Shown here: positions 32,277 through 63,206 of the stretch, in pieces | Position numbering within the stretch: the first letter of the stretch is position 1 | How the letters are laid out: each line of letters opens with the position of its first letter | Assembly: GCA_026770705.1 (NCBI GenBank) | Contig: JANJGN010000031.1 | Coordinates: forward strand, 992,001 to 1,056,000 | Direction of reading: 5' to 3' | Length of the DNA stretch: 64,000 nt | Source of the DNA: Isurus oxyrinchus | Taxonomy: Eukaryota | Translations under genes and position numbers: made by a program | The notes under the pieces: model-generated | What the model saw: the letters and a program-made list of their open reading frames with translations, nothing else | The model's database searches: none | Told to the model about the DNA's origin: nothing

Positions 32277-32313
32277 GGTTTTTGTTGAGCTCCCCCATCT
32301 CTGCGTCAATGTG
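32277..32313 (-). other. RSS of V32 (21-bp spacer)
   Basis: CACATTG (32307-32313), 21 bp spacer, perfect nonamer ACAAAAACC (32277-32285). Confidence 0.85.
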
Positions 32314-32609
32314 TTTACTCCAGGCGCAATAATACACAGCCGAGTGATTGGCCCACAAGCTGGTAGTCTCCAGGTAAGAGTGGGTGTTGTCGGGTTTTCT
32401 GGTGGTGAATCTGTCCACCTCATCGGATGGAGTGACTGTTCCAATGTAGGAATAAAAAAGGTTCTGAGGCTCATGGCCAGGATGCCATCGGTACCAGTAG
32501 AAATTGCTGCTAGCATCTGCTTCCGTGTAAAGGCACTCGATGCTGACTGGAGTGCTCGGGGGACTAGATATGTAAGCGGGAGACTGTTAGACATGCACGT
32601 CCGCAACAT
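32314..32609 (-). pseudogene. TRBV: TRBV30-like V exon with a single in-frame stop (V32)
   Basis: TTACAG| acceptor, then VADVHV*QSPAYISSPPSTPVSIECLYTEADASSNFYWYRWHPGHEPQNLFYSYIGTVTPSDEVDRFTTRKPDNTHSYLETTSLWANHSAVYYCAWSK. The only coding lesion is TAA at 32587-32589. Confidence 0.93.
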
Positions 32610-33161
32610 CTGTAAAGCAGAGAGTGAAAAGACAAGTGTTTACAGTGACACCCCTTGAGGGAGCACAATAGCAGGTTGAGGAATAGAGGAGACGAGATTG
32701 ACAGCAGGAATTTCAGGAAGCCATTTAAGTATAGAGAAAGAACGAAAGCCAGAGAAAGAGAGGGAGGGCAGAATCAGAGACAAAGGCAAATAGAGAGAGA
32801 CAGAGAGAGAGAAACAAAGAGAGAGGTAAAACCAAGAGCATTCGATAGGACATGAAAGGAATAGAGTGAGATAGAGTGAGAGAGAGGAAACAGACAGGGG
32901 GGCAGGGAGACAAGCACACAAAGGAAGGATCAAATTAGAGAAAGTAATAGGCAGAGAGGTAGAAAGGGAAAGAGGTAGAAAGAAAGAGAAACAGAATGAC
33001 AGGGAGAGAAATACAGAGTGACAGACAGACACATCGACATACAAACAGAGGCAAAGGGAATCCACACTTTCAAGATACGTGAATAAGCTCAGGAAGGGGC
33101 TTAAACCCTAATCAGGGCACACAGGGCAATAAAAATGAGGTCATTGACAGTTCCACCTTAC

Positions 33162-33204
33162 CCGGTAAGATCAGCAACACAGCCCAGAGTTGAGATACAG
33201 ACAT
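33162..33204 (-). pseudogene. TRBV: TCR V leader exon (V32)
   Basis: 43 bp, MSVSQLWAVLLILP+G, donor G|GTAAGG, phase 1. Confidence 0.88.
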
Positions 33205-33361
33205 CTTCTAAGGGTAAAAGGCCGGTGGTTTCAATGCAGAATATCTCAAATTCTGGGCGCTAAGTGAATTTACTGCCGCCTACTCCAAATGATACAATGT
33301 GTGCTTGCAAGGGACAGGCTCCTTTTTGTTCGATGACTCCGACACAGGACATGTTATTTCC

Positions 33362-33427
33362 GGGGCGGAGTTAATGCGGAACACTGGATATTTACTTTTC
33401 GCACTTTGATAGCAGAGTCTGACGTCA
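33362..33427 (-). promoter_or_regulatory. V32 promoter: GC box and perfect CRE palindrome
   Basis: GGGGCGG at 33362-33368 and TGACGTCA at 33420-33427, about 160 and 216 bp upstream of the leader ATG. Confidence 0.55.
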
Positions 33428-34047
33428 GTTTAACCCCGTAACGTTTACACTTAGTCTGAATCATTCGTTACCTTCCCAGTGAGTGACAGATTTTAATCTG
33501 AAGACAACCAATGAATTATACATTTTGCTTTCTCCCTATCTCTGCTTTCTCTGCCTGTAGCCAGTACTATGTCTGAGTCTAGCTGGTAGCACAGTGGGTT
33601 TCTTGCTGGTAGGGTAGCATTGAAGATTAGATTAATGATCCATGGACATGAGGTTAACTCCCAATCCTGACAGCAGATTGAATAAAATCTGCTATAAAAA
33701 GCTGGTATCAGTATTCATGTTCTTGGAACTGTCGAATTGTCGTAAAAAAACGTCTTGTTCGCTAATGTCTAGTAGAGAATTAAATCTGCCATCCTTACCT
33801 GATCTGACCTCGACGTTCCTCCGGATATAGCCCAATGTAGTTGACTAACTGCTCTCTGTGAAGGTGGCTCTCTACCGATTTCTCGAGGACTAAATAAAGG
33901 ATAATAATCGTTGAACTTGTGACTGACACCGGCATCCCCTGAATGAATTTAACAAAAGTTCTTTCCCTTCTCATGTTCTCAATAAGTTTGTTTCTGCCCT
34001 GAGCCACATTCCCGCCTGCATCGTCTTTTCCCCATTTTGTCACCGTG

Positions 34048-34295
34048 TCAGACGCAGTAATTCACCCTCCAGTGCACCCCCCCCCACCGACCCCCCACCC
34101 CCACCCCCTCCAACCCCCTCACAGCCTGGACGCTTGCACGTGGAAGGTCGAGTCATCGGATCTCGAGGCGATGAAACCGTCCAAAGGGTCGATGTTGCCG
34201 GAGTTGGGAGAGTGGAAAACGAGAAAGAACTCTTGATTTGGGAGATGGTGATACCAAAAGAACCCGGAGCCGTAGGCTCCCGATGCAGAACAGGA
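34048..34295 (-). pseudogene. TRBV: TRBV30-like V exon remnant lacking acceptor and FR1 (V34)
   Basis: SCSASGAYGSGFFWYHHLPNQEFFLVFHSPNSGNIDPLDGFIASRSDDSTFHVQASRL*, a G-rich run, then CAC TGG AGG GTG AAT TAC TGC GTC TGA (aligns to HSGVYYCAW of V60). It is followed by heptamer-like CACGGTG at 34041-34047; no nonamer at 23 bp. Confidence 0.82.
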
Positions 34296-34381
34296 ATAAG
34301 AAGGAGCACAATGGGAGTAAAATTCAGGAACATGACATTTGCAATCAAACTGCTCCATTGCACTGAAGGGGGGAGATTCAC

Positions 34382-34424
34382 TGTGTAACAGCAGCGCAGA
34401 TACCAGACATTGAGTGAAATGCAT
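34382..34424 (-). pseudogene. TRBV: TCR V leader exon (V34)
   Basis: 43 bp, MHFTQCLVSALLLH+A, donor A|GTGAAT, phase 1. Confidence 0.75.
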
Positions 34425-35874
34425 TTAAAAAGTTTAGAAGTTTTCACAACAGAAACAGAGTCCTGGTGGATGTGCAGTGTCTTTTTGGAACCACAATTCT
34501 GTTTGAGTGACAGCTGTAGCCCGCTCACGCTAAGCCCCGGCTTCTAAGCGTCTGATGAACATCCTAACACCTCCACCCCCATTGACCCCTGTCTCTCCAA
34601 ACTGTTGAAGCCACTGAACCTGGTACTATTCTGTTAAATACACCCCCCTTACGTTTCTCCTCCTTTAAGGAGATCTCAAGCTTCTCAGATCTCAGATGGA
34701 TGTCCCACAACCCTGACACCAATCTGCTCTATCTCAACTGCATCTTCCCTGGAGCCTTAACATCCTAATGGAGAGTTCCCAACTTTGCACACACAATACT
34801 CGAATGAAGCGTGAGCGGTACTCAAAAGAGGAGGAATGAAGGGGAGGTTTATTTAACGGAATGGTACCATGGATGAGTGGCTTTAACAATTTGGAGAGAC
34901 TGGAGAATCTCGTGGGCTGTGGTGTTATCGAGTAAGGATTCAGCAATTGTCAGTCAGATTGTAAGAGGCACAGGGAGATTGTCTATCCATATCTAAACAT
35001 TAGAACATATCTAATGAAATTCTATAGCAAGTCCGTTCACAACTGAATTTTTACAAAACATGGGGAACATGCGTCAGTCCGAGAATATCGGAAAGATTCA
35101 TGGCGGCAACAAATCGATTGCAGGCTTTGCAAAGTTCACTTTAAATCCGGGTTTTTGATTGGTAGTGTGTCAGATCTCTTTCTTAATTTTCTTTCTTTCT
35201 CTCGCGTCCTTTTCTCTCTGTCTCTTCCATTCTCTACGTCCCTTATTCCCCCTCTCTCTCTATATATCTCCTTCTCCGACTGTTTATCGTCCTCTCTCCT
35301 TCTCACTTACTAAAGAATTTCGTAACCCTTTTCGGAATGTCGAGAAGTTAGGGGCTGCGGTGGAGCAGACAGATTTAAGAATGGCAGGACATAAATGACT
35401 ACGTTCTGTTGGACAGTTGCAATAAACATTTAAAAAGTGCTATGTAGTGGTAGCCTTTAACTCAAGGCATTGGAAGTATAGATGGGAGGGATTTACGAAA
35501 GTTTTTATAATGCTCTCGGTAGATCCCGCGTGGAGTGCTGTGTTAAGTTCTGGCTCTCTGTCTCTACGGCCCCTTCTTCCGACTGCTAATCCCACTCTCC
35601 TTCCTTCCCCTCATCTCCCTCTCCTTTTCACACTCCCTCTCACTCTCCCACTCCACTTCTTCATCCTTCCCTCTTCTGCTGTTTCCCTTGTACTTTACTA
35701 TTTCCTTCCATCAGCTCTCTATCCTACCACCCCTTCCTCAATCCTTCCCCTTATCTTCCTTTTTCTATTCTCCTTTACCCACTTCCACCCGTGATCATTG
35801 TCTCCATCCAGTTCATCTCCCCACCCTTCCTCTGTTCCTCAAAACCCCTTTTCTCTCTCCTTCCTCTCACTCTC

Positions 35875-37965: not shown

Positions 37966-38213
37966 TAATCGAGAAAGGGAGTGTGTGAAAAGTAGCAAGA
38001 GTGTGAACCACAGGCTGACAGGCGAGACTGAGAAAGAAAAAGAAATGAGAGACAGTGTGAATGAGGAGGGGAGAGACAGAGAGTGTGAGAGAGTTGGAGA
38101 GAGGGAGGCAGAACGATGCACAGAGAGAGAATAAGATAAAGAGAGGAAATGTAGCTAGATAAATGGAAAGCGGCAAAAACAAAATGTGCTACAGAATGAC
38201 AGAGCGACAGATA

Positions 38214-38447
38214 AACACACACAGACAGACACAGGCACTCTCTCTCTCTCGCACACACACACACACACCCACCCGCACTTTCTCACACAGACATACACAC
38301 TGTCACGCACACACTCTCTCTCTTCTACGCACTCACTTACACACACAGAAATACACCCTCTCTCTCTCTTACACACACGTCCACTCTTTCTCTACACACA
38401 CTCACACACACCCTCTATCATACAAACACACACTTACACACACACAG

Positions 38448-38478
<31 letters not shown>

Positions 38479-41319: not shown

Positions 41320-41705
41320 AGCCATATAAATATAGTGGTTACCAGAGCTGGTCAGGGACTAGGAATCCTGCAACGAGTAACTCACTTCCTGACTCCCCAA
41401 AGCCTATCCAAAATCTACAAAGCATATGTCAGCAGTGTGATGGAATACTCTCCATTTGCCTGGATGAGTGCTGCTCCAACAACACTAAAGAAGCTTGACA
41501 CCATCCAAGGCATATCAGCCTGATTGGCACCACATCCACCACTGACACACAGTGGCAGCAGTGTGTACCATCGTCAAGACGCACTGCAGGAATTCACCAA
41601 GGCTCCTTAGGCAGCACCTTCCAAACCTGGGGCTACGACCATCTTGAAGGACAAGGGCAGCAGCTAGATGAGAACACCACAACCCGAACGTTCCCCTCCA
41701 AGATG

Positions 41706-42511
41706 GATGTGAAGTATTCCCTTAAATCTCTGATAATGTCCTCTGGCTCCATCCATAGATTAGCCCTTTTGTCCTTAATGGGCCCTCCTCTTTCCTTGGT
41801 TATCATCTTCCCATTAATATATTTATAGAATATCTTGAGATTACGCTACTTTTACGAGCCAGTGCTTTCTCATATCCCCCCTTTGCTCTCACAATTGCTT
41901 TCTTAAGCTCCACCCTGCACTTTCTGCACTCCAGTAATGCCTCTGCTAATTTGCTCCCCTTGTATCTGCTAAAATCCTATCTTTTCCTTCACACCGTATC
42001 CTGAATATCTCTGACCATCCAAGGTTCTCAGGGCTTTTTGCTCCTTCCTATGACCCTAGAGGGAACATGTTGAGCCTGCATCCTCCCCACTTCCTTTTTG
42101 AACACCCCCCCACCCCCACCGCCACCCACTGCTCTTATGCAGATTTCCCCACAAGTAGATGTTCCCAGGCTACCTTGACCAAATCAAGCCTTATTTTAAT
42201 AAAATCCGCTCTCCCCCAAACCAAAACATTTTTTTGCATCTTGTCTATTTCTTTGTGCATTATAAGCTTAAATTGTATCATGTTGTGGTCACTCTCACTA
42301 AAATGCTCCCACACCACCACCTCAGCCACCTGCTTGGCTTCATTACCCAGAATTAGGTGCAGCATTGCGCCGACCCTTGTTGGACACTCTACACATTGAC
42401 CTAAAAAGATCTCCTCTACACATTTCAGGAAATCCACTCCATCCAAGTCCTTATCACTATATCTATCCCAATTTGTTTTGCGAAAGTTGAAATCACCTAA
42501 TATAATTACCC
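41706..42511 (-). mobile_element. CR1 internal fragment (endonuclease end and linker)
   Basis: FLKCVEEIFLGQCVECPTR...SDHNMIQF. Confidence 0.8.
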
Positions 42512-42513
42512 AA

Positions 42514-43830
42514 TGACACCGCTGGACAAGCTAAATCTCAGGTGGAATCCAACCTGATAGGTCCTAATGTATTGTCTTCGATACATGGAGCGTGACTACT
42601 GAACAGAGTGACAGGAGTCAGCTGATTAACTTTTAACAAAATAATAAAATATTAATTAAACCAGTAAAGATGAACTATAATGCATCATTCCTTTACCCAG
42701 AACTATACTTATACAAATATATACAGATTCATAAGGATAACAGAAGTTTCAAAAGCCATTTATAGTCTCATGTTCACTGTATATAGACAGTCCACCTAAA
42801 GCAATAGGCAGCCTGTGGTCAGGCACACCACACCCTGAAACTAAGTGACAGATGCCACCCCGAACAGATGTTATTGATATCTCAGCTCCGTCCAGATACT
42901 TGTCACAACATGAGCCAACTGATCTCACTGAACTCCATCTTTCTCACAAGGTTTTCCAATCTCTGCTGTTGAAGAATTTGTGCTGGAATCTTCCCCCAAA
43001 TAATGCTTTCTCTCAGGCATATTCCACAAGGGTCCATTCGAACTGTCCTTCCGACATTCCTCCCCCTGGATCACCACATGAATTGAAACTTCTTTCCATG
43101 AACGCTGTCTCAATGCCTCAACCATGCCAATTGAACACCACTGCTTCACAAGCCCAAATTAAAGAATTACAGTCCTTCCCGACTTCTTGCTTTAAATCTG
43201 CTTCCTGCAGATTTATTCTCTCTAAGCCTGAAGCTTGGCGCCTTCCTCTCAGCTCCTTACTTTCACTTCCACAGAACAATACCTCTTCCAGCTTCCTGTC
43301 CTTGTCCTTTGACCAGGCTGTCCATTCGGGCCCTTTACTGTTCCACTAACCTGGATTTGGGGAGTTTCTTCTTTAGTTTCTGGAACCTGCTCCTGCAGTT
43401 TCCTTTCCTCTTCAGCCTTTCTTGGCAGCTGGCCTGAACTTTAGTTTGGGACTTGTTATCTGTCCCTCTGTTGTCCAGCCTCTCTGGAGTCCTGGCTTCA
43501 ACTGAACTCAAACTGCTTTCAACTGAACTGAAACTACTTTTCTGGTTCTGTGGAGCCTCCTTCTCTGGACCTCTGTGGCTAGGAAACATCACAATTTCAT
43601 TCAACTCTCGTTTGCTTTAATCCCCTTTCAAGAGTAATAAAATCTTCAATAAAATCAAGGCATCTTAAAAAGTGAAACTAAAACTCAACATCTTCTTTCC
43701 TTAACACACAAATAGAGAAATACAAATCAAACTTAAAATTAAAGCTCAAATTCAAACCTAAAGATATACCTTCTTCCTAAAACACCCAAATACAAATATA
43801 ACTTACTTAAACCTTCTCTATTTCCTAAGA
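42514..43830. mobile_element. Possible solo LTR (~1.3 kb)
   Basis: Begins TGACACC exactly where the CR1 fragment stops; non-coding, with an internal 21-bp tandem at ~43500-43540. Terminal CA and TSD not confirmed. Confidence 0.35.
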
Positions 43831-44481
43831 GAATGAGATGGGAAACAGGAGACAGAGGAGATCGGGGGAGGGGTGGTGGTGGCGGGGGTTGGGTGGGGGG
43901 GGGTGGTGGTGCAAGAGGCGGGGGAGATGGGGAGAAGGAAGCAGAGGAGATGGGGAGCAGGAGGCAGATGGGTGACAGTAGAGGGCACCCATAGCCTGGG
44001 GACCTCATTGCAACCCTTTACACAGCTGTGGAAATAACCCCATTGCTGATTTTTTCAACAAGATTTTTTAAAAGAATAGGAATGTTTTGCTTTCTGAAGG
44101 TAAAAAAGAAACAATGTTAATTGCTATAAATAGCAATACTCCTCCGTTGTGGAGGAGGGATCTTTGAAAAATAACTTAGTGTATTGTTGCAAAGCAGAAT
44201 TTTCACTCAAATAAGATCATTTACCTATTGCATTTGTCTCCGCGGGCAGCCATATTATTATCCTATAGCCCTACCAGTTGTTCTTCTAGGTAGGCAGTCT
44301 CCTTAAACGGGTTTATTAAGCCATTCTATAATAAAATGAAAGCATTCATGTCATAATCTTACCAAACTAATGAACAACAAAATAAAAACAAAACCCTACA
44401 ACCACACCAACCCCCTTCACTTCTCTCTCTCTCTCTCCACCCCACCCCCCACCCCCAACCCCCCCCCCCCCCCCCCACCCC

Positions 44482-44636
44482 CCGCCTACACACCTTAAAC
44501 CAGCTTATATTTCAACTCTTTCTTGGACTCACTCAAGTTCTGTCGAAGGGTCATGAGGACTCAGAACGTCAACTCTTTTCTTCTCCGCCAATGCTGCCAG
44601 ACCTGCTGAGTTTATCCAGGTAATTCTGTTTTTGTT
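44482..44636 (+). mobile_element. Penelope 3'-tail fragment (same subfamily as the 23-26 kb element)
   Basis: Near-identical to 25920-26070, including CTGTCGAAGGGTCATGAGGACTC. Confidence 0.8.
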
Positions 44637-45734
44637 AAGTGACCAACAGACCATTTAAAGTTGGTCCAACACACGTGTTCTGATGAAGGTCTACACCAAA
44701 ACATGAACTTGTTACTTGTCTTTACATATGCTTTGATCTTTAAATTCTCATCCTTGTATTCAAATCCCTCTGTGGCCTTGTCCTGCCACACCTCTGTAAA
44801 TCTGTAATCTTCCAAGATCTCTGTAATCGTCCAATTCCCAACTTTTGCACATACTCAATTTGGACTGATGGCATGTTTCTCTGCTCTTGAAAACCGGGAC
44901 TTCCGCTCAAATTTTCGGTTACCTTGTTCTACTATTTTCACATGGCTTGGTGTCAAACCTTGTCTGGAATTTGATACCATAGCAACTTATGTCACAGCGA
45001 GCCTCTCATATGTTGTGCAGCAACAAAATAACATCTTTCAATCATTTTCACTTTTGGAAGAAAACAAAAATCACAGATAAAAACACTGCCTGTTCAGAAT
45101 TCAAGAACCATCTGAAATGCAGGCCCAGATTTTTGCTATGGCAAACGGGTTCTCCGTCATGGTAAATATATCAAGATCATAAGTTACATCTCCAAACATG
45201 GTATATCCCATCTTCACATGGAAGGGGATGGAGTCAGGCTGGGTTCCATGCATGCACCTGTGAGACAGGCCATTTAGATCACCAGCTGCCTCCACTGAAG
45301 TGCGATTTTGATAGGCCAGGAATGTGAAGCCCGGCGTGTGCAAATTAGACCTGGTCTGGTAAGAACTGGATTCGTTTTGATAGCAAGGATACACCTTTGG
45401 AGAGGTAAGGTACTCCGTTTGATATGGATTTGGGACACATTTGGGAAAGCAAGGCAACTTTTGGGGTAGGTAAGGCACACTTTGGGATTGTTGAAAGTAG
45501 ACACGATTATGCAGAAAATGTGCATAAACACATTTGGACTGTCTCAGCTGTCAAAGAACTGTCACAACTCATTGGAACTGTCAAAGCTGTGAAATAACTG
45601 CCAAAACTCTTTGGAACTGTTAAAGCTGTCCAGGGGTGTAACTCTGCTGGGCTTTAATTCAAAGCAAAATTGTAGAGCTCAAAGAAAAATCACTGCTATT
45701 CTGTTTGTTGACATAATGTTGTCTTATTGGATTT

Positions 45735-47092
45735 AGAGTCACAGAGTTATAGAGGTCTACAGCACATAAAACTCCCTCAGCCCATCGAGTCAAACAAGTA
45801 CCTAACTATTCTAATCTCATTTTTCAGCACTAGGCCCATAGCTTTGTAAGCCATGGCATCACACGTGCACATCCAAATACTTCTTAAATGTAACGAAGGT
45901 TTCTGCCTCTACCACCCTTTCAGGCAGCAAGTTCCAGATTCCTACCACCCTCTGGGTGAAAAAATCTTCCTGACCTCGCCTCTAAACCTCCTGCCCCTTA
46001 CCTTAAATCTATGCCCCCTGGTTATTGACCCATCCACCAAGGGGTAACTTTGCTTCTTGTCTACCCTATCTATGCCCCTCATAATGTTATGAACCTCAAT
46101 CATGTCCCCCCTTAATCTTCCCTGCTCCAGGGAAAATAACCCGAGTCGATCCAATCTCCCCTCATAACTAAAATTCTCCAGCCCAGGCAACATCCTGGTG
46201 AATCTTCTCTGCACTCTTTCTAGTGTAAACACATCCTCCCTATAATGCGCATCCCTGTATTGCACACAATACTCTAGCGTTTTACACAGTTCCAGCTTTA
46301 ACCTCCCTGCTCGTATATTCCATGCCTCGGCTAAGAAAGGCAAGGATCAAGTATGCCTTCTTAACCACCTTATCTACCTGTCCTGCTACATTTAGGGACA
46401 TGCACACCATGATTCCTCTGATCCTCAGTGCTTCCCCGAGTTCTACCATTCATCATGTATTCCTGTGCCTTGTTTGACCTGCCTAAGTGCATCACCTCAC
46501 ACTTGTCCAGATTAAATTACATTTGCCACTGATCAACCCTTCTAAACAGCCCATCTACATCCTCCTGTAATCTAAGGCTATCCTCCTCACTATTTACCAC
46601 CCCATGTCATCCGCGAACTTACTGGTCAACCCTCCTACATTCATGTCTAAATCATTTATATATACCACAAACAGCAAGGGTTCCAGCACCGATCCCCATG
46701 GAGCCCCACTGGACACAGGCATCCAGATACAAAAACACCCCTGGACCATCACCCTCTTCTTCATTCCCCACTCAGCCAATTCTGGATCAAATTTGCCAAA
46801 TGGCCTTGGATCTCATAGACTCTTACCTTCTTTATTAGTCTCCCATTGTGCGACCTTATCAAAAGCCTTGCTGAAGACCAAGTAGACTATGTCAAATGTA
46901 TTGCCCTCGTCTACACACATGGTCACATCTTCGAATAATTCAATCAGATTGGTCAGACATGACCTCCCCTTAACACAACCATGATGACTGTCCTTGGTTA
47001 ATCCCTGCCTCCTCACGTGTAGTTTAATAGTGTCCCTCAGAATTGCTTCCACTATTTTCCACACAATTGTTAGACTGACTGGCTTGACGTTC
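45735..47092 (-). mobile_element. CR1-type LINE 3' part
   Basis: HGCVKGRSCLTNL, FSKAFDKV, KFADDM, ERVQRRFTRMLPG. Confidence 0.88.
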
Positions 47093-47168
47093 CCGAGGAA
47101 TGATTGAGCAGGCTGGGCTTGTGATAGTACTCTAAATTATTTTCAACAAGAACTGACCGCGGGACGCT

Positions 47169-47259
47169 CTTCCCAGACTGCTTCACCATGATGCTAACTG
47201 CAGGGCAATCTTCCCAGATTGCTTCACCTCGATGCTAACTGCAGGACATACTTCCCAGA
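47169..47259. repeat. 41-bp tandem repeat, ~2.2 copies
   Basis: CTTCCCAGA recurs at 47169, 47210 and 47251 with a conserved TGCTTCACC..GATGCTAACTGCAGG. Confidence 0.9.
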
Positions 47260-48664
47260 ACATAGTTTAATCTATTTTAAACTGGAGAAAAACTGGAGGA
47301 AAAACTGAAGAAGAACACTTACGCACTACTCACTAATCAGCTTTCACCTTTTTGCTGATGTCATTAGTATTAAGTTGTAATGACTTATTTTACAAACTAA
47401 CGTTACCACAGTTTGTTGCCTATTAAGTGAGCCATTTGATTGATATCTCTAAGTGGCTATAGAATAGAAATAGTTGTTTTCCTATGAGATTACTTGAAGG
47501 AAGTTCAATGTATCACATGTTCTTTTAAATAATGAAGTCATGAATAGACACATCATTTTATTTTAATCAGCATAGCTCCTGACGTTTGCCTATCGTGGAT
47601 ATTATATTGTTTTTTGTTTCAATGATACACACAGGCCGTCGACTTTGTAGCTGAGCTAACTTTATTGATCAAACGTTTTCCTAACATGAACACATATCTG
47701 CAGTGGCTGAATTATATCAAGAGAGGTTCCAGCATGGCCTATCTGACCTTCAACCCCCAGGCCAGGGGGTTGATGCCATATCTAGTACAGAGTGCCATAC
47801 AGTATCTAATACTGCAGCCACAACCATAATCAGCAATTATCATGACAGGTACTAGTTGAGTTTTCGGAGAGGATACGTAAAAGGGGGGTGGGTGGGGCAA
47901 ATGGACTGGCATGAGTTAGCACTAAGTTGGCACGGGGGTCTATAAAGGGCCATGGAGATAGTTGGTTGGCATAGGCTTATGAGGAGCCATAAGAGTCGAT
48001 GGGAGCATGAGGTGGATTCTGTTGCCATGGAAGTGGCATGCCGAGTGTGTGAGGTCTGAGGGGATGTGAGCGGTCAGGGTTGGAGGGATGTTTATGTTAT
48101 AATCTTTATTTTTTTTGGCCTTCCTCCCAGCCTGCCTTGGCACTTGTCACCTTCTATTCCAGCTTAACCCACGCCCTCTGCTGAATGCAACTCGCCATCA
48201 GTAGCCCAGTCAAGCTGGTGTATTTAGCTTTGGCTGATCAGATTTCATTGCTGAAACCATTTACTTGCCAATGCCCTGCAACAAACATTTGCTTGTTTCA
48301 ACAATGAGGTATGTGGGGGGTCATGGGTCATACAATGGCAAGGGAGGAGAATAATGGGGGCATACAGCACATGAGGAAAGAGTTAGATGAACGTCATTAT
48401 AATCTGAATGTTCCATTTCATATTCCGTTCCTCATTTACAGCATGAGCAGAAAGAACTTGCATTCAAATAGCGTCATTCACAACCTCAGGATTTCCAAAA
48501 GCACTTTAGATCTAATGGAATACTTTTGAAGTGTAGCTACTGTTTTAATGTGGGAAATGCAATAACTGATTTGTGCACAGGCAGATCCCACAGACAGTAA
48601 CTAGTGCAGTGCCCCAGGGATAATTTCTGAGACTTCAACTATTTACAACTAGCAAGCAGGAAAC

Positions 48665-50045
48665 AAAGAGTCTGCAAAGAGGTATAGATAGATAAGTGAG
48701 TGGGCATATATTTGGCAGATGGCATATAATGTGGGAAAATATAAAATCATCCATTTTGGTAGGAAGAACAGACAAACAAAATATTATTTAGATTGATTCC
48801 AGAGATGCGGGGCTTGTCTTATGAGGAGAGATTGAGTGGTTTAGGCCTATACTCATTAGAGTTTAGAAGGATGAGAGGAGATCTAATTGAGGTATAAAAG
48901 ATGCTAAAGGGGATAGACAATGTAGATGTGGAGCGGACATTTCCCATTCTGGGGCATTCTAGAACAACAGGCCATAGCTTTAGGCTAAGGGGTGGTATAT
49001 TTAATCAGAGATGAGGAGGAATTAGTTTTTTCAAAGGGTCGTGAATCTGTGGAAATCACTACCTCAGAGTACAGTGGATGTCGGGACGCTGAATAAGTTT
49101 AAGAGTGAGAAAGAGATATTTTAATTAGTAATGGGTTGAAAGGTTATGGGGAGAGGGCAGGAAATTGAAGTTGACGCCGAAATTAGATCAGCCATGATAG
49201 TAATAAATGGCGGGGCAGGCTCGAGGGGCTGAATTGCCTATTCCTGCTCCTTGTTCTTATGTTCTTATGTAAAGAGAGACAGAGACTAAGAATTTATTTA
49301 CAGAGGAATCTGGGTGTCTTTGTACATGAATCACAAGAAATTAACATGCAGGCAGAGCAAATAATTAGGAAGGTAAATGGAATGTTGCCCTTTATTGCAA
49401 GAGGGATGGACTTTAAAAGTAGGGAAGTCTTACTGCAAACTGTAGAGTTTTGGTAATACTGCATCTCTAGCACTGTGCACAGTTCAGACCCATTTAAATT
49501 AGGAGGAATATACTTCCATTGAAGACAATTCGGCGAAGTTCACTAGGTTGATTCCTGAAATGAAGGGGTTGTCTTACAAGGAAAGGATGAGCAGGCTGGG
49601 CCTATAGCCATTTAGAAGAATGTGAAAACTCTTATTGAAGCACACAAGGTTATGAAGGTACTTTACAGGATAGATGCTGAGGGAGAATGTTTCACCTCAT
49701 TGGGTAAGCTAGAATGAGGGGGTGGGTGGTGGTGGGGGGATGGGGGGGTCAAAGTTTCAAAATAAGGGTTGTCCATGTGAGACAGAGGTGAAGGTTATTT
49801 TCTTCTTTCAGAGGCTTATGAATCTTTGGAATTCTGTACCCCAAACATCCATGGAAGATTGGTCAGTTAATATATTCAAAGTTGAGTTAGACAGATATTT
49901 GATCGACAAGAGAATCAAGAAAAATGGGGAACAAGCAGAAAAGTGGAGTTGAGGTCAAGATTGGATCAGCGTTGCTTACTGAGTAACCAATCAGGCTTAT
50001 GGAGCCAAATGTCCTACTCCTGATCCAATTTATTATACTCCTGTG
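48665..50045 (+). mobile_element. CR1 3' part containing a nested CR1 3' fragment (~48791-49269)
   Basis: The host frame breaks at ...TATTATTTA and resumes after a TTCTTATG-repeat tail. Confidence 0.75.
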
Positions 50046-52159
50046 TAAGCAGCAATGCGATTATGAGCACAAATTCTGTTTTAGTGATGTTAGTTGAGGG
50101 ATAAATATTGGCTGGGATACTGAGAGAATTTGCCTACTCTTTTCAAATATGCCACAACTATAGAGTAAAATCACAAAAGCTACAGCCTCAACTAGGGGCC
50201 ACACTCAGAGGAAGCACTTGCAAGAGGCACTGGGGGTGACAATACTTTAGTCCTAATTTCTTACCTTGCATTCCTTTCAAACACTGATGAATTCAACCCG
50301 TATGTTATCGTTATATATAGGGTCATTGGAGAGATGTTTTAGACAACTCCAAAATCAAAACAAGAGTAATCAACCAAAGGTTTATGCAGGAAAACTAAGG
50401 CTCCATGTATAGACACCATCATTATGTCACCTACGTTCATTATAATGAGTCTTTTAAAGATGCCCATGTACAGGCCAATACGTACTTAAAAGTAAAACTC
50501 TTCCTGTTGTAAAGTAGGCCCATAAAGTTTTGAACCAAAAGGAAAATAAAACCTTCATATACTAACCTGTAGCTTGTCCACTGCAACTTTCAAGGATTCG
50601 TGAATATTTGTTGGTCCTGTGTCTGCGTCACTCACTCCTCCTGTAGCCCAGAGAAGGACGAAAAGTAAGAAAAATATCTCAAGGAGAAAGATGTTACTCC
50701 TGACCAATAGGTAATACAACAGGCAGTTCATGTGAAAATAAATTGTAGCCATTGCAAAAGCTTTTATTTACAATCTCTAGAATTTTGCTGTGCAAATCAT
50801 TTCTTACAGACCGGGGTCGCAATGCTGAGAAACTACAGAAAAGCATTAGCTGATAGGCCAATAAATAGGCACGAGAGAGGAAAGGACACAAAGCAAGACA
50901 GTTGGACATTAATTGTTGATGGCAAAAGTTGGACAGTCAGTGGATTGAGTATGCTGTAGTATCTAATAGTACAGAAGGAGGACATTCTGTCCATTGTGAC
51001 TGTGCTGGCTCTTTGATGGAATCATCTAATCAGTTCCCCTCAGTTTTCCCTTTTCTGTTACCCTACACATTTATCTTTTTATGTATTTTCTAATTCTCTT
51101 TTGATAGTTACTATTTAATCTGTTTCCACCATCCTTCTCAAACGCGCATTGAACATTGTGACAACTTACTATAAGAAAAAATTCTCACCCCCCACAACCC
51201 CCAACCCGCTCAACATCCCCAAATCTTATATTTCATATACTTTGGTGTATATCTTGTGGTTTCGGTTGTGGTTCAGAAATATTAAGGTCGAGGAAACAAA
51301 CCTCGATATGTTGTTAGAAGGAAGTTAATTTATATAGGAGGTCTGTTCCAATTGAATGTTGGAAATGTTGTGGTCATTTCGCAAGATTTCTTATGCTATT
51401 TAGAGTTTTTGACATCTATTCAAGTTTCTTCCAGCTTTGCTAGGTTAAATTATTTCTGCATTGCAGTACCTTTAGTGGCCACTACCTTAGCTAGCCATGG
51501 GATTATTAATTCACTGCAATGGTGGCGCCGTCGAGCACTTTCTGATTTTTCTCGGGCTTACTTAAGTACCACCCAAAAAACAGCCTTTTTTGGGGCGAAA
51601 TTGGAGTTCTCTGTTTCAAAAGGTAAGTAAAACAGTTAAAAAAGCTTTTTTTAAAACCTTCATTTAGCTGTTAGGAACTGTTAATGGAGAGACTCTTCTC
51701 CCCAGCCCATGCTGCAGTATTTACCTTCAGCAATAATTGACACATTTCTGCCTGTGAGTTCTGCTTAGTGAGGTCTCACTCCTGCGAAGTAAGTCCTGTT
51801 CCTCCACAAACTTTGCAGCAAATAGACTTTTACTAATTAAGCTCTCCCAGAATTGGACAATATTATTGGAACTCGATGCCTGCTAGCCGGAGCAAGTTGT
51901 GATTCCAAGACATTGGTATGGTGTGTGGAATGTCTATAAAGCCACAGAATCACTTACACACAGAAAGGTTTGATAGATGTTTTAATTTCACACCAGTCCA
52001 TTCCTTCCTGCTGCATGTGAAGGATTGCGACTTCAATTTTGCTCAATCAAATCTTCAAAACATACTGCCAGCATGTTGTGGATGCCACACTTGAAAATCA
52101 AAGATCTCCAGAAAGCACCAGCTGCCATCATGTTACCACCGTGGCAAGGTCTTCTTCTA

Positions 52160-55100
52160 GGCATAGAAGCACAGAAAATAAGAGCAGGAGGAGGCCAAGC
52201 AGCCCTTCGGTCATGGCTGAACCTCTACCTCAATGCCAAACTCCCAGTTTTCCCCACGGCCCTGGACGCCTTCAGAGTCCAGAAATCTATCTATTTCCTT
52301 CTTGAATATATTCAACGACTTGACCTTCACAGCCTTCTGTGGGAGGGAATTCCATAGTTTCACCATCCTCTGAGTGAAGATGTTTCACCTCATCTCATCC
52401 TAAGTAGTCTAGCCCATATTCTGAGATTGTGACCGCTTGCTATAGAACCCTAGCCAGAGGAAACATCATCCCTGTATCCAGTCTGTCCAGTCCTGTCAGA
52501 ATTTTATAGGTTCCAATGGGATCCCATCTCCTTTCTCTGAACTCTAGTGAATATAGGTCTAGTCGGTCCAATCTCTCCTCTTAGGACCATCCTGACATCC
52601 CAGGAATCAGTCTGGTGAACCTTCACCGCACTCCCTCTATGGCAAGTATATCCTTTCTTAGGTAAGGAGACCAAACTGCACACAGTACTCCATCTGTGGT
52701 CTCACAAAGGTACTATACAGCTGCAATTAGACATCCTTGCTCTGGTAGTCAAGTCCTCTGGCAATGAAGGCCAGCATACCATTTGCCTTCTTAACTGCGT
52801 ACTGCACCTGCATGTTTGCTTTCAGTAATTGGTGTACAAGGACACACAGGTCCCTTTGTCCCTCATAATTTCCCAATCTATCACCATTTAATAGTACTCT
52901 GCCATTCTGTTTTGCCTACCACAGTGGATAACTTCACACTTATCCACATTTTACTGCATCTGTCATGCATTTTCCCACTCACTCATCTTGCCTAAATCGC
53001 CTTGAAGCCACTCAACATCATCATCACTCACATTCCCACTTAGATTTGTGCCATCGGCAAATTTGGAAATATTACATTTGATTCCCTCATCCAAATCATT
53101 GATATATATATTGTAAATAGCTGGGGTCTAGGCACTGATCCCTACAGTATTCCACAAATCACCGCCTGCCATTCCAAAAAAGACCCATCTTTACCTATGC
53201 TCTGTTTCTTGTCTGATAATCAATTCACAATCCATGCCAATATCTTAGCCCCAATCCCATATGCTTTAATTTTACACACTAACCTCTTACGTAGCATTTT
53301 ATCAAAAGCTTTCTGAAAATCCAAATACGCCACATCCACTGGTTCTCCCTTATCTATGCTGCTAGTTGTGTCTTAAAAAAAATCTGCAGTAGGTTTGTCA
53401 AACATGATTTCCCTTTCATAAATCCATGTTGACTTTTTCTAATCCCACTGATATTTTCTGAGTGTCCTGTTATTACATCTTTATAACAGGCCCTGCATTT
53501 TCCCCACCACTGATGTTAGGCTAACCGGCCTATAAGTCTCGGTTTTCTCCCACCCCCAACCCCCACACCCCACCCCCACCCCCGCCGCCTTTTATAAAAT
53601 AGTGGGGAGACATTTGCCACCCTCTAATATTCCAGGACTGTTCTAGAACCTACAGAACTTTGGAAGATGACAACCAACTCATTCATTATTTCCATGGCCG
53701 CCTCCTTTAGCACCCTGGGATATAGATTATCAGGCCTTGGAGATTTATCAGCTTTCAGTCCAATTAATTTCTCCAGCACTATGTGTTTAGTCATACTAAT
53801 TTCCTTCAATTCCTCCTTCTCTCTCGGCCCTCAATTCCCTAGCATTTCGGGGAAGTTATTTGTGTCTTCCTCGACAAACACAGAACGAAAGTAATGGCTT
53901 AATTACTCTGTGATTTCCTTGCCCTCCGTTATAAATTCTCCTGTTTCAGACTGTAAGGGGCCTACATTTGTCTTCGCTAATCTTTTCCTTTTTACATATA
54001 TATAGAAGCTTTTACAGTCGCATTTCTGTTCCTTGCAAGTCTACTCTCATACTCTATTTTTCTCCTCTTCATCAACCTCTTTGTCCTCCTTTGCTGAATT
54101 CTGAACTGCTCAAAGCTTCAGGTTTGCTACTTTTTCTAGTAACGTTGGAAATGTTTGCCATGGTTGGACTGCTTTTCGCGCTGTGTTTTTGCACCAGAAA
54201 GGAATGTATAACTGTTGCAATGCATACATTAGCTCCTTAAATATTAGCCATTGCTTACTCAACGTCATGCCTTTTAGTGAAGTTCCCCAATAAATGCCTC
54301 ATACCTTCATAGTTTCCTTTGTTTCGATTTAGGACCCTAGTTTCGGATTGGACAACTTCACTTTCTAAACTAAAGAAGAATTCTACCATGTTATGGTCAC
54401 TGGAAGGAGGCTGCACAGCAAGATAGTAATTAACCCATTCTCATTGCACAAAACCGAATCTAGAACAGCCTTTGTTGGTTCCTCGGCGTACTGGTCTAAA
54501 AAAACCAGCTCGGACACGCTTCAGGAATTCATCTTGTCGTATATACTGTCATTTGTGCATTGAAGTTTAAAGTCCTTGTATTCTGTGCCTTGCGAATGCA
54601 GAACAATAAGGTGCCAGTTGTGTTTAAAAATAACCCAATTGACATCATTGTCATCATCCAGGACGAGGTAATACGACTCTCTGCACGCTTCTTTATAAAT
54701 CTTCGTAGCCAGTTTAGCGATAGGTGAATCAGCTGGCAAACCTCCGTACAATAAATCCCTGACCCAAGTATCACTGGGCTAATAGAAAAACAAAGGCAAA
54801 AAATAATTTGTTAATTTGGTTTGCCCAGCCTATACGTAGATTAAAGTCACCCATGATTGCTGTAGCACTATTGTTACATGCACCTCTAATTTCCTATTTA
54901 GTACAGTCTCCTACCTTACCACTACCTTTTGGAGGCCTATAGACAACTTCCTCTGATGTTTCCCACCCCTTGTTACTTCTTGGCGCCACCAAGACTTATT
55001 CTACATCTAGATTTTCTGTGCCAATATCCTCTCTCACTGCTGCAATGATTTCATCTTTAACTAACAATTCCACACCACCTCCTTCTCCTTTTTGACTGTC

Positions 55101-55190
55101 CATACTAAATATCGAACACCCTTGGATATTGGTCACCCTGCAGCCATGTCTCTTTAATCACAATCATACGATACCCATTTACATCTATTC
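52160..55190 (-). mobile_element. CR1-type LINE (continues at ~56812-57140 after a nested element)
   Basis: LKADKSPRPDNLYPRVLKE, plus continuous reverse-complement homology to 55191-56811. Confidence 0.85.
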
Positions 55191-56811
55191 TAGGGAAATG
55201 GTGTTGGAGGATTTGTTGGGATTGAAGGCCAATAAATCTCCAGGGCTTGATAATCTACATCTCAGAGTACTGAAGGAAGTGGCCCTATAAATATTGGATG
55301 CTTTGGTGGTCATCTTCCGAGATTCTGTAGACTCTAGAACAGTTCCTATAGATTGAAGGGTAGCTAATGTAACCCCACTATTTAAAAAGGGAGGTGGAGA
55401 GAAAGCTGGGAATTATAGTCCAGTCAGCCTGAAGTCGATATTGGTGAAAATTTTAGAGTCCATTATAAAGGATTTAATAGTTGAGCACTTGGAAAACAGT
55501 GGGAGAATCTGACAGAATCAGCATGGATTTACGGAAGGGAAATCATGCTAGATAAATCTACTGGAATTTTTCGAGAATGTAACTGGTAAAGTTGATGAGG
55601 GGGAGCCAGTCGATGTGGATTACTTGGACTTTCAGAAGGCTTTCACAAAGTTCCACATAAGAGATAAGAGTTTGAACTTAAAGTGCATGGGATTGGGGGT
55701 AGTGTATTGAGATGAATACAAAACTAGTTGGCAGACAGGAAACAAGGAGTAGAAATAAATGGGTATTTTTCCGAATGGCAGGCAGTGACTAGTGGGGTAC
55801 CGCATGGATTGGTGCTGGGACCCAGCTATTCAAAATATATATTAATGATTAAGATTAAAGAACTAAATGTAATGTCTCCAAATTTGCAGATGACAAAATT
55901 TTGGGTGGGAGGGTGAGCGGTGAGAAGGATGCAGAGATGCTTCAGTGTGATGTGGACAAGAGCAGTGAGTGGGAAAATGCATGCCAGATGTAGCATAATG
56001 TTGATAAATGAGAGGTTATCCACGCTCGTAACAAAAAAAGGAAGGCAGATTATTATCTGAATGACTATAAATTCAGAGAGGGGAATGTACAATGAGACCT
56101 GGGTGTCCTCATACACCAGTTGCTGAAGGTACCCATGCAGGTGTAGCAGGTGGTAAAAAAGGCACATGGTATGTTGGCCTTCATAGCCAGAGGATTCGAG
56201 TACAGGAGCAGGGATGACTCACTAAAATTGTACAGTTCTTTGGTGAGACCACGCCAGGAATATTGTGTGCACTTTTGGTTTCCTTGTCTGAGGAAGGATG
56301 TTCTTGCGATTGAGGGGTGTAACGATAGTTTGCCAGACCAATTCCTGGGCTGACGGAACAGGCATTTGAGTAGAGATTGAGTTGGTTAAGATTATATTCG
56401 CTGGAATTGAGATGGACGAGGGCGGATCTCACAGAAACGTATAAAATTCTAACAGGACTTGTCAGGGTAGATGCGGGAAGGATGTTCCCGATGGTGGGGG
56501 AGTCCAGAACCGGGAGTCATAATCTGAGGATATGGGGTAGACTATTTAGCACTGAGATGAGGAGAAATTTCTTCACCCAGAGACTGGAGAGCCTGTGGAA
56601 TTCGCTATCACAGAAAGTAATTAAGTCCAAAACATTGTATGTTTTCAAGAAGGAGTTAGATATAGTTCTTGGGCCAAAAGGGATCAAATTATATTGGAAG
56701 AAAGCAGGAACAGACTATTGAGTTGGATGATCAGTCATGATCATAATGAATGGTGGAGCAGGGTCGAAAGGAAGAATGGCCTATCCTGCCCCTGTTTTCT
56801 ACGTATCTATG
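55191..56811 (+). mobile_element. CR1-type LINE nested in opposite orientation
   Basis: VTSGVPHG, LAFIARGFEYRS and RRNFFTQR, with a 3' tail ending TCTATGT. Confidence 0.88.
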
Positions 56812-60187: not shown

Positions 60188-60292
60188 ACTTCCTGCCGCT
60201 CGCAGTTCCACATAATCCAATCAGGGAATGAGGGGCGGGGCTGATAAAAAAGGGCGGGGCTGTCACTCTGAATTGGCGGGGCTGGGCTGTCA
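60188..60292 (+). promoter_or_regulatory. V60 promoter region: ETS-like site, CCAAT, three GC boxes
   Basis: ACTTCCTG (60188), CCAAT (60217), and GGCGGGG at ~60232, 60252 and 60275, just upstream of the putative leader. Confidence 0.5.
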
Positions 60293-60365
60293 ATCAGTGT
60301 GAGGAGGAGCATTGTATTTCCAGTGTTTTCTTACCAGTGATACAGATTGGTTAAAAGGGAACCTG

Positions 60366-60411
60366 AAGTGGAAAAAGTATCTGTTGCTGGCTGCGTTAAC
60401 CATGTTTCACT
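60366..60411 (+). pseudogene. Leader exon of V60 with lost start codon
   Basis: AAG TGG AAA AAG TAT CTG TTG CTG GCT GCG TTA ACC ATG TTT CAC T|GT: 46 bp, hydrophobic core YLLLAALTMF, phase 1. AAG stands where ATG is expected. Confidence 0.55.
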
Positions 60412-60600
60412 GTTATGAACTTGCCAGGCAACAATTCCTATTCAGCCTTTAGCTTCCAGTCCCACTTGCTGACCTTCCCTTACTCTCTCTCCTTCTTGTC
60501 TTTTTCTATTTCTCTACATTTATATCTTTCCTTCCTTTGTTTCCCCAACACCCAATATACCCCCTTTAATAACGGCTTAGGCTCGCCTTCTCTTCCCCAG

Positions 60601-60828
60601 ATGCGAACGCACAGACTATCCGCCAGACTCCCTTACATGTTCTGATACAGATAATACTCGGGGAACGAGCTGCACTTTCTGTTTTACTCCACAGGCACCA
60701 ATATTGTAAATCCAGTGGGGCCGGTGGAGGATTTCACCGCCTGAAGACCGCGAGACTCCGAGTTCAAGTTGGAGTCCCCCAGCCTGCGGGCGGATCACTC
60801 AGGCGTGTACTATTGCGCCTGGAGCCTG
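60601..60828 (+). pseudogene. TRBV: TRBV30-like V exon pseudogene with 68-bp deletion (V60)
   Basis: TCTTCCCCAG| acceptor, then ANAQTIRQTP[del]YMF*YR*YSGNELHFLFYSTGTNIVNPVGPVEDFTA*RPRDSEFKLESPSLRADHSGVYYCAWSL. The exon is 228 bp versus 296 bp for V63. Confidence 0.92.
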
Positions 60829-60867
60829 TACAGTGACTCAGAGAGATGGAGCAGCTGAACAAAGACC
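60829..60867 (+). other. 23-RSS of V60 (heptamer mutated)
   Basis: TACAGTG (first C of CAC lost), exactly 23 bp spacer, ACAAAGACC. Confidence 0.85.
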
Positions 60868-61460
60868 CCAAAGGCTGCAGGAAACAGTTTTGAACGATAA
60901 AAGTGCGCGGTGGCTGCACCTGCTGTGTTTTGTTTTTCTTGCAGAGCGAGCATTGTTTTTGACAATAAGAGAAAAGGCTACAACGAAAGTGACTGATCAG
61001 GTTGAGGAGCACTGGAGAAAGTGAAAAGGAAAATTAACGAGGAGGTTACCAGAACTGAGAGGCTATAGTTAGCAGAAAAGGATTGGCAGCCTTATTTCTA
61101 ATGGATTAAGTGCATTGAAATATATTCATTATAGAGGTTCTTGAAATTGTGAAAGTTGTTTGATAGGGCAGATAAAGTGAACATATTTCCACTTTCTAGG
61201 AAGATCAAAACGATTAGAAGACGCCATCAGTAATACATTTAACTGGGAATCTGGGCGAAACTAACCCTGAGGGTGGTGAGAATGTGGTTGGAGAAAGGAT
61301 ATACTAAAGGTGAAATTACACAAACACGTGAGAGAGAAATAAATAGATTCAACTAAGTAACGTTAAGAAAGAAAGATAAGAGATAAATAGAAAGGGAGAG
61401 GGAAGTTTAGAGAAAGAAGGACAACAGAAAAGAGACAGAGAGAGAGGGCGAGTGAAATCA

Positions 61461-61720
61461 CTAAGATAAAAGCAAAATACTGCAGATGCTGGAAATCTGA
61501 AACAAAAACAGAAATTATGAAAAACTGAGCAGCATATGTGGAGAGATAAAGAGCATTTTGAGTCCGTATGACCCTTGTTCAGAGCTCAAGAGAAGTGGAA
61601 ATGTGATGAAACTTATAGGGGGATGGGGCAGGTGGAGCTGGATAGAAGGCCAGTGATAGGTGGAAGCAAAGAAGAGATTGACAAAGATGTCATGAACTAA
61701 GGAACAACGGGAATGTTAAT
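61461..61720 (-). mobile_element. Penelope-derived 3'-tail fragment
   Basis: CTGCAGATGCTGGAAATCTGAAACAAAAACAGAA tail with a decayed hammerhead. Similar scraps occur at ~9005-9090, 28300-28465 and 29213-29262. Confidence 0.7.
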
Positions 61721-62497
61721 GTTACTGGTTACCTAAACCGCGTCAGGACTATATTTTACCTTCAACTGGCCACCTCGAGTCCACATTTCTCAGCACACTG
61801 ACCCAACAAAAATCCATCAATCTCAGTTTTGTAATGTAAGATTAACCCCCCATTAATCTTTTGCTGGGAGACGGTTCCAGATTTCCACAACCATTTGTGA
61901 GAGGAAATATTTCCTCACATCACCCTGAAAGACCTGTCTCTAATTGTGAAGTTATACTATTTTTTCAGGTGTGGGAATCTAGAAAATGAGGTACCTATCG
62001 CCTGCGATTACTGCTTTCGAAATCCATGAAAGAAACTCAAATGTGGGTCTTTCATGCAGAAGGTAAGACAGACAAGGTTATGCAACCTGTCCTCATGATT
62101 TAAAACCGTAAACGCAGGTATAATTCTGTTGAATAAGCTTTGTACTCCCTCCAGGTCCAATTCATCCTTCCTGAGGTGTCTGCCCCGAATGGAAAGAAGG
62201 ATTCCCGAAGGAACTTGCTCTGGGTTCCCTCCAATGAGCCAGAACTTCCTCCGTTTCGCCTTCTAGTTCCCTTCAAGTAAAAAATCCATTGGACTGTATG
62301 ATTCTTCCTCATACAGCGAGACAACTAATTCCCTTTGCAGCTCCAGACATCCTTGCTTCCCACGAGATAGAACCTATTCTGCTCTATCTTTGTGAGGTCG
62401 ACCCTGGATGACTTGAGAATGGTTCACATTAAACTGCATCTGCCGCGCCTTTACCCAAGCTGTCCCCTTTCAAACGCCCCGTTCCGCGCAATAATAA

Positions 62498-62534
62498 GGG
62501 TGGGGCTTTCAATCAGAGGAGGCGGGGCGTGGCC
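62498..62534 (+). promoter_or_regulatory. V63 promoter-like GC/GT boxes
   Basis: GGGTGGGG, CAATCAG and GGCGGGGCG; similar arrangement to the V60 upstream region. Confidence 0.4.
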
Positions 62535-62870
62535 TTTTACACCTAAATCATTTCCTTAAGCTCTTCATGTTTTCCTCAATGATTTTAAACAAGCAGGTCA
62601 GCTCCCAACAAGACTCCATCTTCTTGGCTCAGCTCATTTCCTTATTACAGGAAAGGTTTACCAGTCAACATATACGTGGTTTTGAGTTTCCTGAGCTTAT
62701 TTCAATGCCAGTGATTTTTTTTATGCAATAACCTGTTTAACAACAATTCTTTATATTTCCTTTCCTTCATTATTCCTTTCCTTCCCTTCCTTTCTTTCTT
62801 TCCCTCCTTCCTTCTTCACCTCTAAGATTTCTTCAGTTCTGACCTCCTCCTCACCCTGTCTCTTCCCCAG

Positions 62871-63166
62871 ACGTGAACTTGCAGCCGATCTGCCAGACTC
62901 CCGCCGCTATCTACAAATTTCCTAGGCAGGCAGTGGAACTGAATTGCGAGGTAGAGGGCAGGAGTATCCCTGCTAATTACGGGTACAGACAACACCAGGA
63001 GAAAGTGTCCCAAGTAATGTTTTACTCCAGTAATATCAGCCACGTGAGTTCAGAGGGGCCGGTGGACGGTTTCACCGCCGAGCGACCGACTGGCTCCAAG
63101 TTCAAGCTGCAGTTCTCCACCCTGCGGGCGGATCACTCGGCCATGTATTACTGCGCCTGGCGTCTT
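62871..63166 (+). CDS. TRBV: TRBV30-like V exon, open frame but probably non-functional (V63)
   Basis: TCTTCCCCAG| acceptor, then VNLQPICQTPAAIYKFPRQAVELNCEVEGRSIPANYGYRQHQEKVSQVMFYSSNISHVSSEGPVDGFTAERPTGSKFKLQFSTLRADHSAMYYCAWRL. Both Ig cysteines are present, the conserved Trp reads GGG (Gly), and no intact leader was recognised. Confidence 0.92.
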
Positions 63167-63206
63167 CACAGTGATTTAAAGAGATGGAGTATCTCAAACA
63201 AACACC
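63167..63206 (+). other. RSS of V63
   Basis: Perfect CACAGTG (63167-63173). The best nonamer, ACAAACACC at 63198-63206, gives a 24-bp spacer homologous to that of V60. Confidence 0.88.

Follow-up and report, generated by a model that had tools for sequence, protein, structure and literature searches.

The window analysed here, a stretch of 64,000 nucleotides of Isurus oxyrinchus (positions 992,001 to 1,056,000 of contig JANJGN010000031.1, hereafter C31; C-numbers denote contigs of one 4.98-Gb assembly of this species), carries four variable (V) segments, V32 and V34 on the minus strand and V60 and V63 on the plus strand. We propose that they are non-functional TRBV30-lineage members of a shark T-cell receptor (TCR) beta locus (TRB) that has two opposed diversity-joining-constant (D-J-C) clusters, and that their mixed strands come from a tandemly repeated unit in which a dead relic is joined to a V module. 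We give this reading about four chances in five.

The four segments lie where an earlier note on this DNA had placed them (32.3-32.6 and 34.05-34.4 kb on the minus strand, 60.6-60.8 and 62.9-63.2 kb on the plus strand), and each carries defects. V32 retains a leader exon (33162..33204, minus) with its ATG and GT donor intact; its V exon (32314..32609, minus) has an in-frame TAA at 32,589-32,587, and its recombination signal sequence (RSS; 32277..32313, minus) consists of CACATTG, a spacer of 21 nt (2 nt longer in the intact paralogue) and ACAAAAACC. V34 (34041..34400, minus, outer limits approximate) is decayed, with frameshifts, a poly-G stretch, an NYCV-stop end and a heptamer-like CACGGTG that no nonamer follows. 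V60 (60601..60828, plus) has lost its leader ATG near 60,375, contains a frameshift and stops, and is 60 bp shorter than its paralogue by deletion; its RSS (60829..60867, plus) reads TACAGTG, broken at base 1, then a 23-nt spacer and ACAAAGACC. The frame of V63 (62871..63166, plus) is open, with the conserved Trp changed to Gly at 62,981-62,983; no usable leader was detected for it, and its RSS (63167..63206, plus) comprises CACAGTG, a 24-nt spacer and ACAAACACC. Pfam V-set is matched by V32 and V63. None of the four combines a leader, an open Cys-Trp-Cys exon and a 23-RSS starting with CAC, and we classify all of them, from these lesions, as ordinary pseudogenes. The homologous RSS spacers claimed for three segments were recovered: the window contains exactly three occurrences of the pattern AGAGATGG.G.A.CT.A, one in the RSS of each of V32, V60 and V63. 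The signature HS(G/A)..YYCAW, said to be shared by all four, stands in part: YYCAW occurs three times in the six frames of the window against none in 30 base shuffles, whereas V34 has lost it; the motif is still present in the V34 paralogue 93 kb away.

We assign the four segments to the TRBV30 lineage, as the earlier note had proposed, on the basis of trees and of structure matches. In a 69-row tree they fall inside a 39-row clade (support 99/87) together with models from other sharks and with bichir, reedfish, crocodile and turtle proteins named TRBV30, while other TRBV, TRAV, TRGV and IGHV sequences lie outside; these trees have 98 columns, references picked by similarity and automatic names, and include no mammalian row. 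A quick 68-row tree, from which 8 redundant reference rows were removed and to which 7 were added, gives a 37-row clade with a Shimodaira-Hasegawa-like approximate likelihood ratio (SH-aLRT) of 98, the two TRGV of this genome falling outside. An all-shark clade (34 rows forced together) was rejected (p-AU, from the approximately unbiased test, 0.011). Among single-domain PDB matches, an intact paralogue at C31:1,477.9 kb scores highest with the Mel5/5xov beta chain, at 87.5 bits; no other single TCRβ V domain exceeds 57.7 bits. This chain is given as TRBV30 in the available part of PMC5887915. An intact member and the human TRBV30 chain are identical at about 47 of 95 positions, counted from the printed alignment, and a family profile search likewise finds TRBV30 to be the closest human V. 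A search for mammalian TRBV30 found none among the 120 matches listed out of 185, which are mostly bird TRBV. The PDB search with V32 alone returned only single-chain variable fragments among its top 60 and that with the C exon was dominated by multi-domain antibody chains, so that neither names a family.

Both D-J-C clusters lie on the same contig as the window. Cluster 1 (D, about nine J and a four-exon C) occupies C31:1,182.6-1,205.1 kb on the plus strand, and cluster 2, its mirror copy, C31:1,347.5-1,325.3 kb on the minus strand. The D segment (GGGACAGGGGG) is found in two copies (C31:1,182,586, plus, and 1,347,514, minus), each with a 5' 12-RSS, a 3' 23-RSS and the core GGGACAGGGG, which the available part of PMC11754216 describes as conserved. 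J segments with FGXG and a 12-RSS are found between D and C in both clusters; cluster 1 has 12 pattern matches (nine convincing ones 3' of D, one 5' of D and two doubtful) and cluster 2 has nine. A J-like segment with an FGDG motif and a splice donor is present at C31:1,182,154, 430 bp 5' of the D of cluster 1, and the same peptide occurs in the white-shark gene model P0286. Each constant gene (Cβ1 and Cβ2) is composed of a C1-set Cβ exon, a hinge, a transmembrane exon with a charged Lys and a last exon; C exons and transmembrane exons are all open and splice sites are canonical. Cβ1 is 50-66% identical to named shark TCRβ constant domains and 96.5% identical to a white-shark model.

The clusters are embedded in two mirror arms (1,125-1,252 kb against 1,437-1,288 kb) whose alignable blocks are 78-90% identical and cover 90.7 of 131 kb; the C exons are 96% identical between arms, and indels are numerous across them. 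We interpret this arrangement as an old mirror duplication, at about 78-85% identity, in tail-to-tail orientation. Inverted V segments follow both constant genes, seven behind Cβ1 and five behind Cβ2; nine of these 12 are TRBV30-like, and all nine were scored as pseudogenes. This inverted block is older than the mirror duplication, because it is present behind both C copies and because one pair of its members on the two sides of the mirror axis are sisters (99/93).

Contigs from public sequencing runs, which derive from other individuals or relatives and whose nature as RNA is guessed, bridge the C introns at GT..AG joints. Runs X1, X2 and X7 each contain a Cβ1-type and a Cβ2-type transmembrane contig, and a spliced X4 contig terminates in the last exon of Cβ2. 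With the RNA status of the runs a guess, these data suggest expression of both C genes and stop short of proof; no RNA source was on record for the Cβ1 stretch. Contigs on the J cluster of Cβ2 include three J-length pieces that show two or three differences and are not assignable to one cluster.

The V census places the four window genes within a large family. The 864 kb scanned around the window gave 117 clusters of V-like matches, 11 of which were discarded because their best seed carried an insertion (one of them is a real, broken V63 paralogue). The 106 segments kept extend from 844 to 1,601 kb on C31, so that the TRB locus measures about 760 kb; no V was found in 140 kb more of flanking sequence. 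By best seed, 73 of the 106 are TRBV30-like, in agreement with the earlier suggestion of a multi-copy lineage, and 19 of the 73 are intact under one simple rule (open exon and acceptable RSS). The host, which the earlier note had called a fish, is a shark and not a bony fish; its nearest proteins are from sharks. Leader exons were located for 29 of the 30 intact V. The 19 TRBV30-like ones are all among these, and all lie upstream of a D-J-C in the orientation of that D-J-C. The arms differ in content: the left arm has 11 intact plus-strand V, only three of them TRBV30-like, and the right arm 17 intact minus-strand V, 16 of them TRBV30-like. All six minus-strand TRBV30-like V of the left arm were scored as pseudogenes. 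Between C31:1,477,000 and 1,607,500, about six tandem units of some 22.6 kb, 98.6-99.2% identical, each hold two intact and several broken TRBV30-like V; 11 of the 16 intact right-arm copies sit inside these units, which may represent a very recent expansion or a copy-number error. One minus-strand V of the left arm, of another family, is intact with a leader and a 23-RSS (C31:1,103,434-1,103,718); it lies 4 kb from a Cβ pseudogene (ψCβ) and has a long branch in trees.

The 12/23 rule governs which segments recombine. Under it, cluster 1 (D-J-C1) would receive the 11 intact plus-strand V of the left arm, mostly of other families, and cluster 2 (D-J-C2) the 17 intact minus-strand V of the right arm, in both cases by deletion. 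We accordingly predict a largely TRBV30-like V content for Cβ2 chains; a join from one arm to the other would take an inversion. Since a deletion in one arm would spare the other, each chromosome could offer two independent chances of making a beta chain, and could thus likely produce two different ones.

The strand switch between V34 and V60 is not peculiar to the window. Its sequence beyond 12.5 kb recurs 88 kb upstream, at C31:916-985 kb, with 96-97% identity and in collinear order over the V34-V60 interval; the two depart from each other at a 1.4-kb stretch containing V32, which is deleted in the upstream copy, and at one insertion. An older paralogue of about 80% identity (C31:1,103-1,125 kb) aligns up to position 41.7 kb of the window and has the same minus-then-plus order, and the plus block from 56.5 kb on mirrors the right-arm V array (77-84%). 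The interval 41702..56504 is the most likely to hold the ancestral switch, since homology to the older, roughly 80% paralogue of the minus block stops on its left and right-arm mirror homology starts on its right. Two further V belong to the minus block: its first gene, V12 (12520..12633, minus), the 5' third of a V exon of another family whose intact paralogue is the V at C31:1,103,434-1,103,718 described above, and V26 (26141..26371, minus), a pseudogene also of another family. About 4 kb to the left of the minus-block paralogues, ψCβ are found on the minus strand at C31:912,101-912,265 and 1,099,265-1,099,462; a DNA search found no transmembrane exon remnant beside them. The two ψCβ are 85% identical to each other and 70-76% identical to Cβ1, Cβ2 and a third constant gene (Cβ3, on an unplaced contig), with 73-76% at the DNA level against Cβ1, and by these identities they appear to represent an additional, extinct Cβ lineage. 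The minus/plus order is thus repeated in three tandem units, two of which have the dead minus-strand Cβ beside the minus block. The repeat unit would then consist of a dead minus-strand V…Cβ relic joined to a plus-strand V module, and its tandem copying likely gave the four segments their mixed strands. The inversion breakpoint that the earlier note had put between 34.4 and 60.2 kb accordingly survives as a real strand switch, narrowed to about 41.7-56.5 kb, and not as a single breakpoint, since it occurs in three tandem repeats.

The alternative that fares best, although we consider it unlikely, is that V32 and V34 are a displaced copy of the inverted V block 3' of Cβ1 and not part of an array upstream of a dead minus-strand Cβ. 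Indeed, they are sisters of the first two inverted V behind Cβ1, the one at 1,225.6 kb grouping with V32 (99/81) and the one at 1,228.0 kb with V34 (100/98), in the same order, on the same strand and at similar spacing. Repeats aside, this likeness is nevertheless confined to the exons and their close flanks (68-74%), the matching part of the Cβ1 block has no mirror partner in the Cβ2 arm, and in two units the V32/V34-type pair shares its orientation with V12, V26 and ψCβ.

That misassembly, with haplotypes or a fold-back placed in one scaffold, created the strand switch, the tandem units or the mirror arms is in our view very unlikely. In favour of an artefact, TCR loci pose difficulties for assembly, identity reaches 96-97% between the copies 88 kb apart and 99% between right-arm units, and the left edge of the minus block carries a run of N. 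That run is, however, the only one in 1,004 kb, and none occurs between V34 and V60. Misassembly of the switch is improbable because the same switch is found in both the 96-97% and the roughly 80% paralogue. A fold-back is rejected for the mirror arms because they are about 20% apart with many indels, well past allelic difference; moreover, Cβ1 and Cβ2 types both occur in independent public runs. The inversion is probably not an assembly error.

Still less probable is one simple inversion of part of a working TRBV30-like array, whose genes would be used by inversional joining to a single D-J-C. In its favour, the switch of strand is genuine, and inversion would be the only way for V32 and V34 to join D-J-C1. 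Such joining would nevertheless give no protein product because both are pseudogenes. So are, by their scores, all six TRBV30-like V on the minus strand of the left arm and the nine inverted 3' ones; the presence of two D-J-C clusters and the threefold repetition of the switch also speak against a single event. For V32 and V34, the single-inversion version is by this comparison largely refuted. What the earlier note had said of the minus pair, that it would join by inversion, keeps its geometry with respect to the nearer D-J-C, on the plus strand, and loses its functional weight and its single D-J-C, there being two opposed ones. Two other genes could be used in this way, namely the intact minus-strand V at C31:1,103 kb, for which inversion onto D-J-C1 would be the only route, and an inverted V exon 3' of Cβ1 at 1,235 kb, for which no leader was found.

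Finally, we discount a TCR gamma or other non-beta origin of the CAW-ending genes: TRGV of this genome on C5 also end in CALW or CAYW with a 23-RSS, but they fall outside the TRBV30-like clade (SH-aLRT 98). The locus of the genes in question contains a conserved TRBD and Cβ, and their best single-domain structure match is a TRBV30 chain. The C5 region (C5:196,790,000-196,830,000, minus, near the contig end), with a C, two J-like segments and V ending in CALW or CAYW, is likely the TCR gamma locus.

Several points weigh against our reading of a relic-plus-module unit in a two-cluster locus. No D or J remnants were found between ψCβ and the minus block, and ψCβ is absent from the window's own copy, where the run of N at the junction makes a gap and a deletion indistinguishable. 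By the sister relations given above, the minus pair may derive from the inverted block. Expression is judged from public runs of other animals; one exon-1 contig has only five of the 12 base differences between Cβ1 and Cβ2, and contigs can mix variants. Contigs on the J segments of cluster 2 are mostly repeat matches. The number of 98.6-99.2% identical right-arm units, with 11 of the 16 intact TRBV30-like V of that arm, could also be misassembled.

A third D-J-C is present at 19,100-35,500 (minus) of the unplaced contig C2826 (58.5 kb, 53% GC). It has a D with 12- and 23-RSS, six J, the first four of which match cluster 1 J in order, and open C and transmembrane exons, its C being 55% identical to Cβ1. 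No V was found on the 58.5 kb of this contig. No close orthologue of this Cβ was found either, the best match reaching 61% in a library from which relatives of more than 50% identity are hidden. The unplaced contigs C163, C1134 and C1481 carry at least 56 TRBV-like genes that belong to another family, are closely related to one another, have a 23-RSS and end in CAASE or CAAGE; these genes are a candidate V array for the third D-J-C, with which they may form a second TRB locus.

Most ingredients of this locus can be compared with other vertebrates, here according to the available parts of the papers cited. In mammals TRBV30 is a single reverse gene, of an origin described as unresolved (PMC11264764), and a 3'-inverted TRBV clade is described in amniotes, salmonids and some amphibians, with five members in tuatara (PMC11754216). 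The mammalian TRBV30 (mouse TRBV31) and the amniote inverted clade belong to the same V lineage as the shark genes, whose inverted members also lie 3' of Cβ, in both arms. Unlike mammals, the shark has about 73 copies and not one, its 19 intact copies are forward and its nine inverted 3' copies are pseudogenes; a single inverted gene 3' of the last C is not what we found, the window genes lying 5' of both clusters in a family of 73. In salmonids and pike, two V-D-J-C units point in opposite directions and enclose the V genes (PMC10464911); these fish resemble the shark in having two complete opposed D-J-C on one chromosome with related J sets. Their units are head-to-head around central V genes, whereas those of the shark are tail-to-tail, with facing C, main V arrays outside and relic V between; the two duplications are likely independent. 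In newts the D-J-C units number six and several clusters are inverted, multiple inverted V being called common outside mammals (PMC12698447), and axolotl has five tandem units (PMC12529555). Together with tuatara (PMC11754216), they share with the shark multiple D-J-C units or multiple inverted V; their units are in tandem and the inverted V of newts are mostly expressed, whereas the shark units are opposed and its inverted TRBV30-like V dead.

Among sharks, the TCRβ of nurse shark (ADW95896.1) and models of Heterodontus, Mustelus, Carcharodon, Chiloscyllium and Scyliorhinus share their constant domain and J motifs with this locus. Chiloscyllium (four models on one scaffold) and Scyliorhinus (two models on one scaffold) also have several TRBV30-like V, and in Heterodontus two scaffolds carry near-identical Cβ models. 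Rast and Litman reportedly proposed, in 1994, multiple TCRβ clusters in the horned shark. These entries of other sharks are single proteins, and neither a mirror arrangement nor a map of a shark TRB locus was found in the literature searched, which covered few subscription journals. The available part of PMC12227049 mentions inverted V after Cβ in general terms and maps no shark TRB, and that of PMC6795676 holds nothing on a shark TRB map. A nurse-shark V is used in the tree of PMC11754216, which may bear on prior placement of shark TRBV30-like genes. Each ingredient of the shark locus has a vertebrate precedent, and it is the plan as a whole that gives it value: a tail-to-tail mirror TRB with dead inverted TRBV30-lineage V behind both C, a forward expansion feeding one arm and a third, divergent Cβ.

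Tentatively, and at somewhat less than even odds, these elements can be joined into one proposal, in which the inverted TRBV30-lineage 3' block predates the split of sharks and bony vertebrates and the shark runs at least three working Cβ in two loci, namely two mirror units, one fed almost only by TRBV30-like V, and the third D-J-C, 55% identical, which would have a large V array of its own. A shark locus in which both C are followed by inverted TRBV30-lineage genes would move the inversion back to the jawed-vertebrate ancestor, and would show that the lineage is able to function as a large family in forward orientation even as its inverted members degenerate. On this proposal the TCRβ of sharks would have several units, midway between a translocon and an immunoglobulin-style cluster plan, and exclusion would be needed among up to six units per cell. 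With opposed units of unlike V content and a third Cβ, arm-specific V use, cross-arm inversion and allelic exclusion would be testable by repertoire sequencing.

As regards the surroundings, a C1s-like complement gene lies 30 kb to the left of the first V (CUB exon at C31:733,800, single-exon protease domain at 815,464-816,162). Of the genes that flank TRB in tetrapods, EPHB6 and the trypsinogens, no sign was found: none of 14 Eph ligand-binding domain matches is on C31, and none of the 150 trypsinogen exons scored is near the locus. Within the window, just past V26, a 2.7-kb element (23,381-26,074) has terminal inverted repeats of 1.14 kb that are 97.5% identical; it is absent from the 927-kb paralogue, has copies of 92-97% identity at 899, 1,375, 1,446, 1,576 and 1,579 kb of C31, and is probably a foldback DNA transposon.

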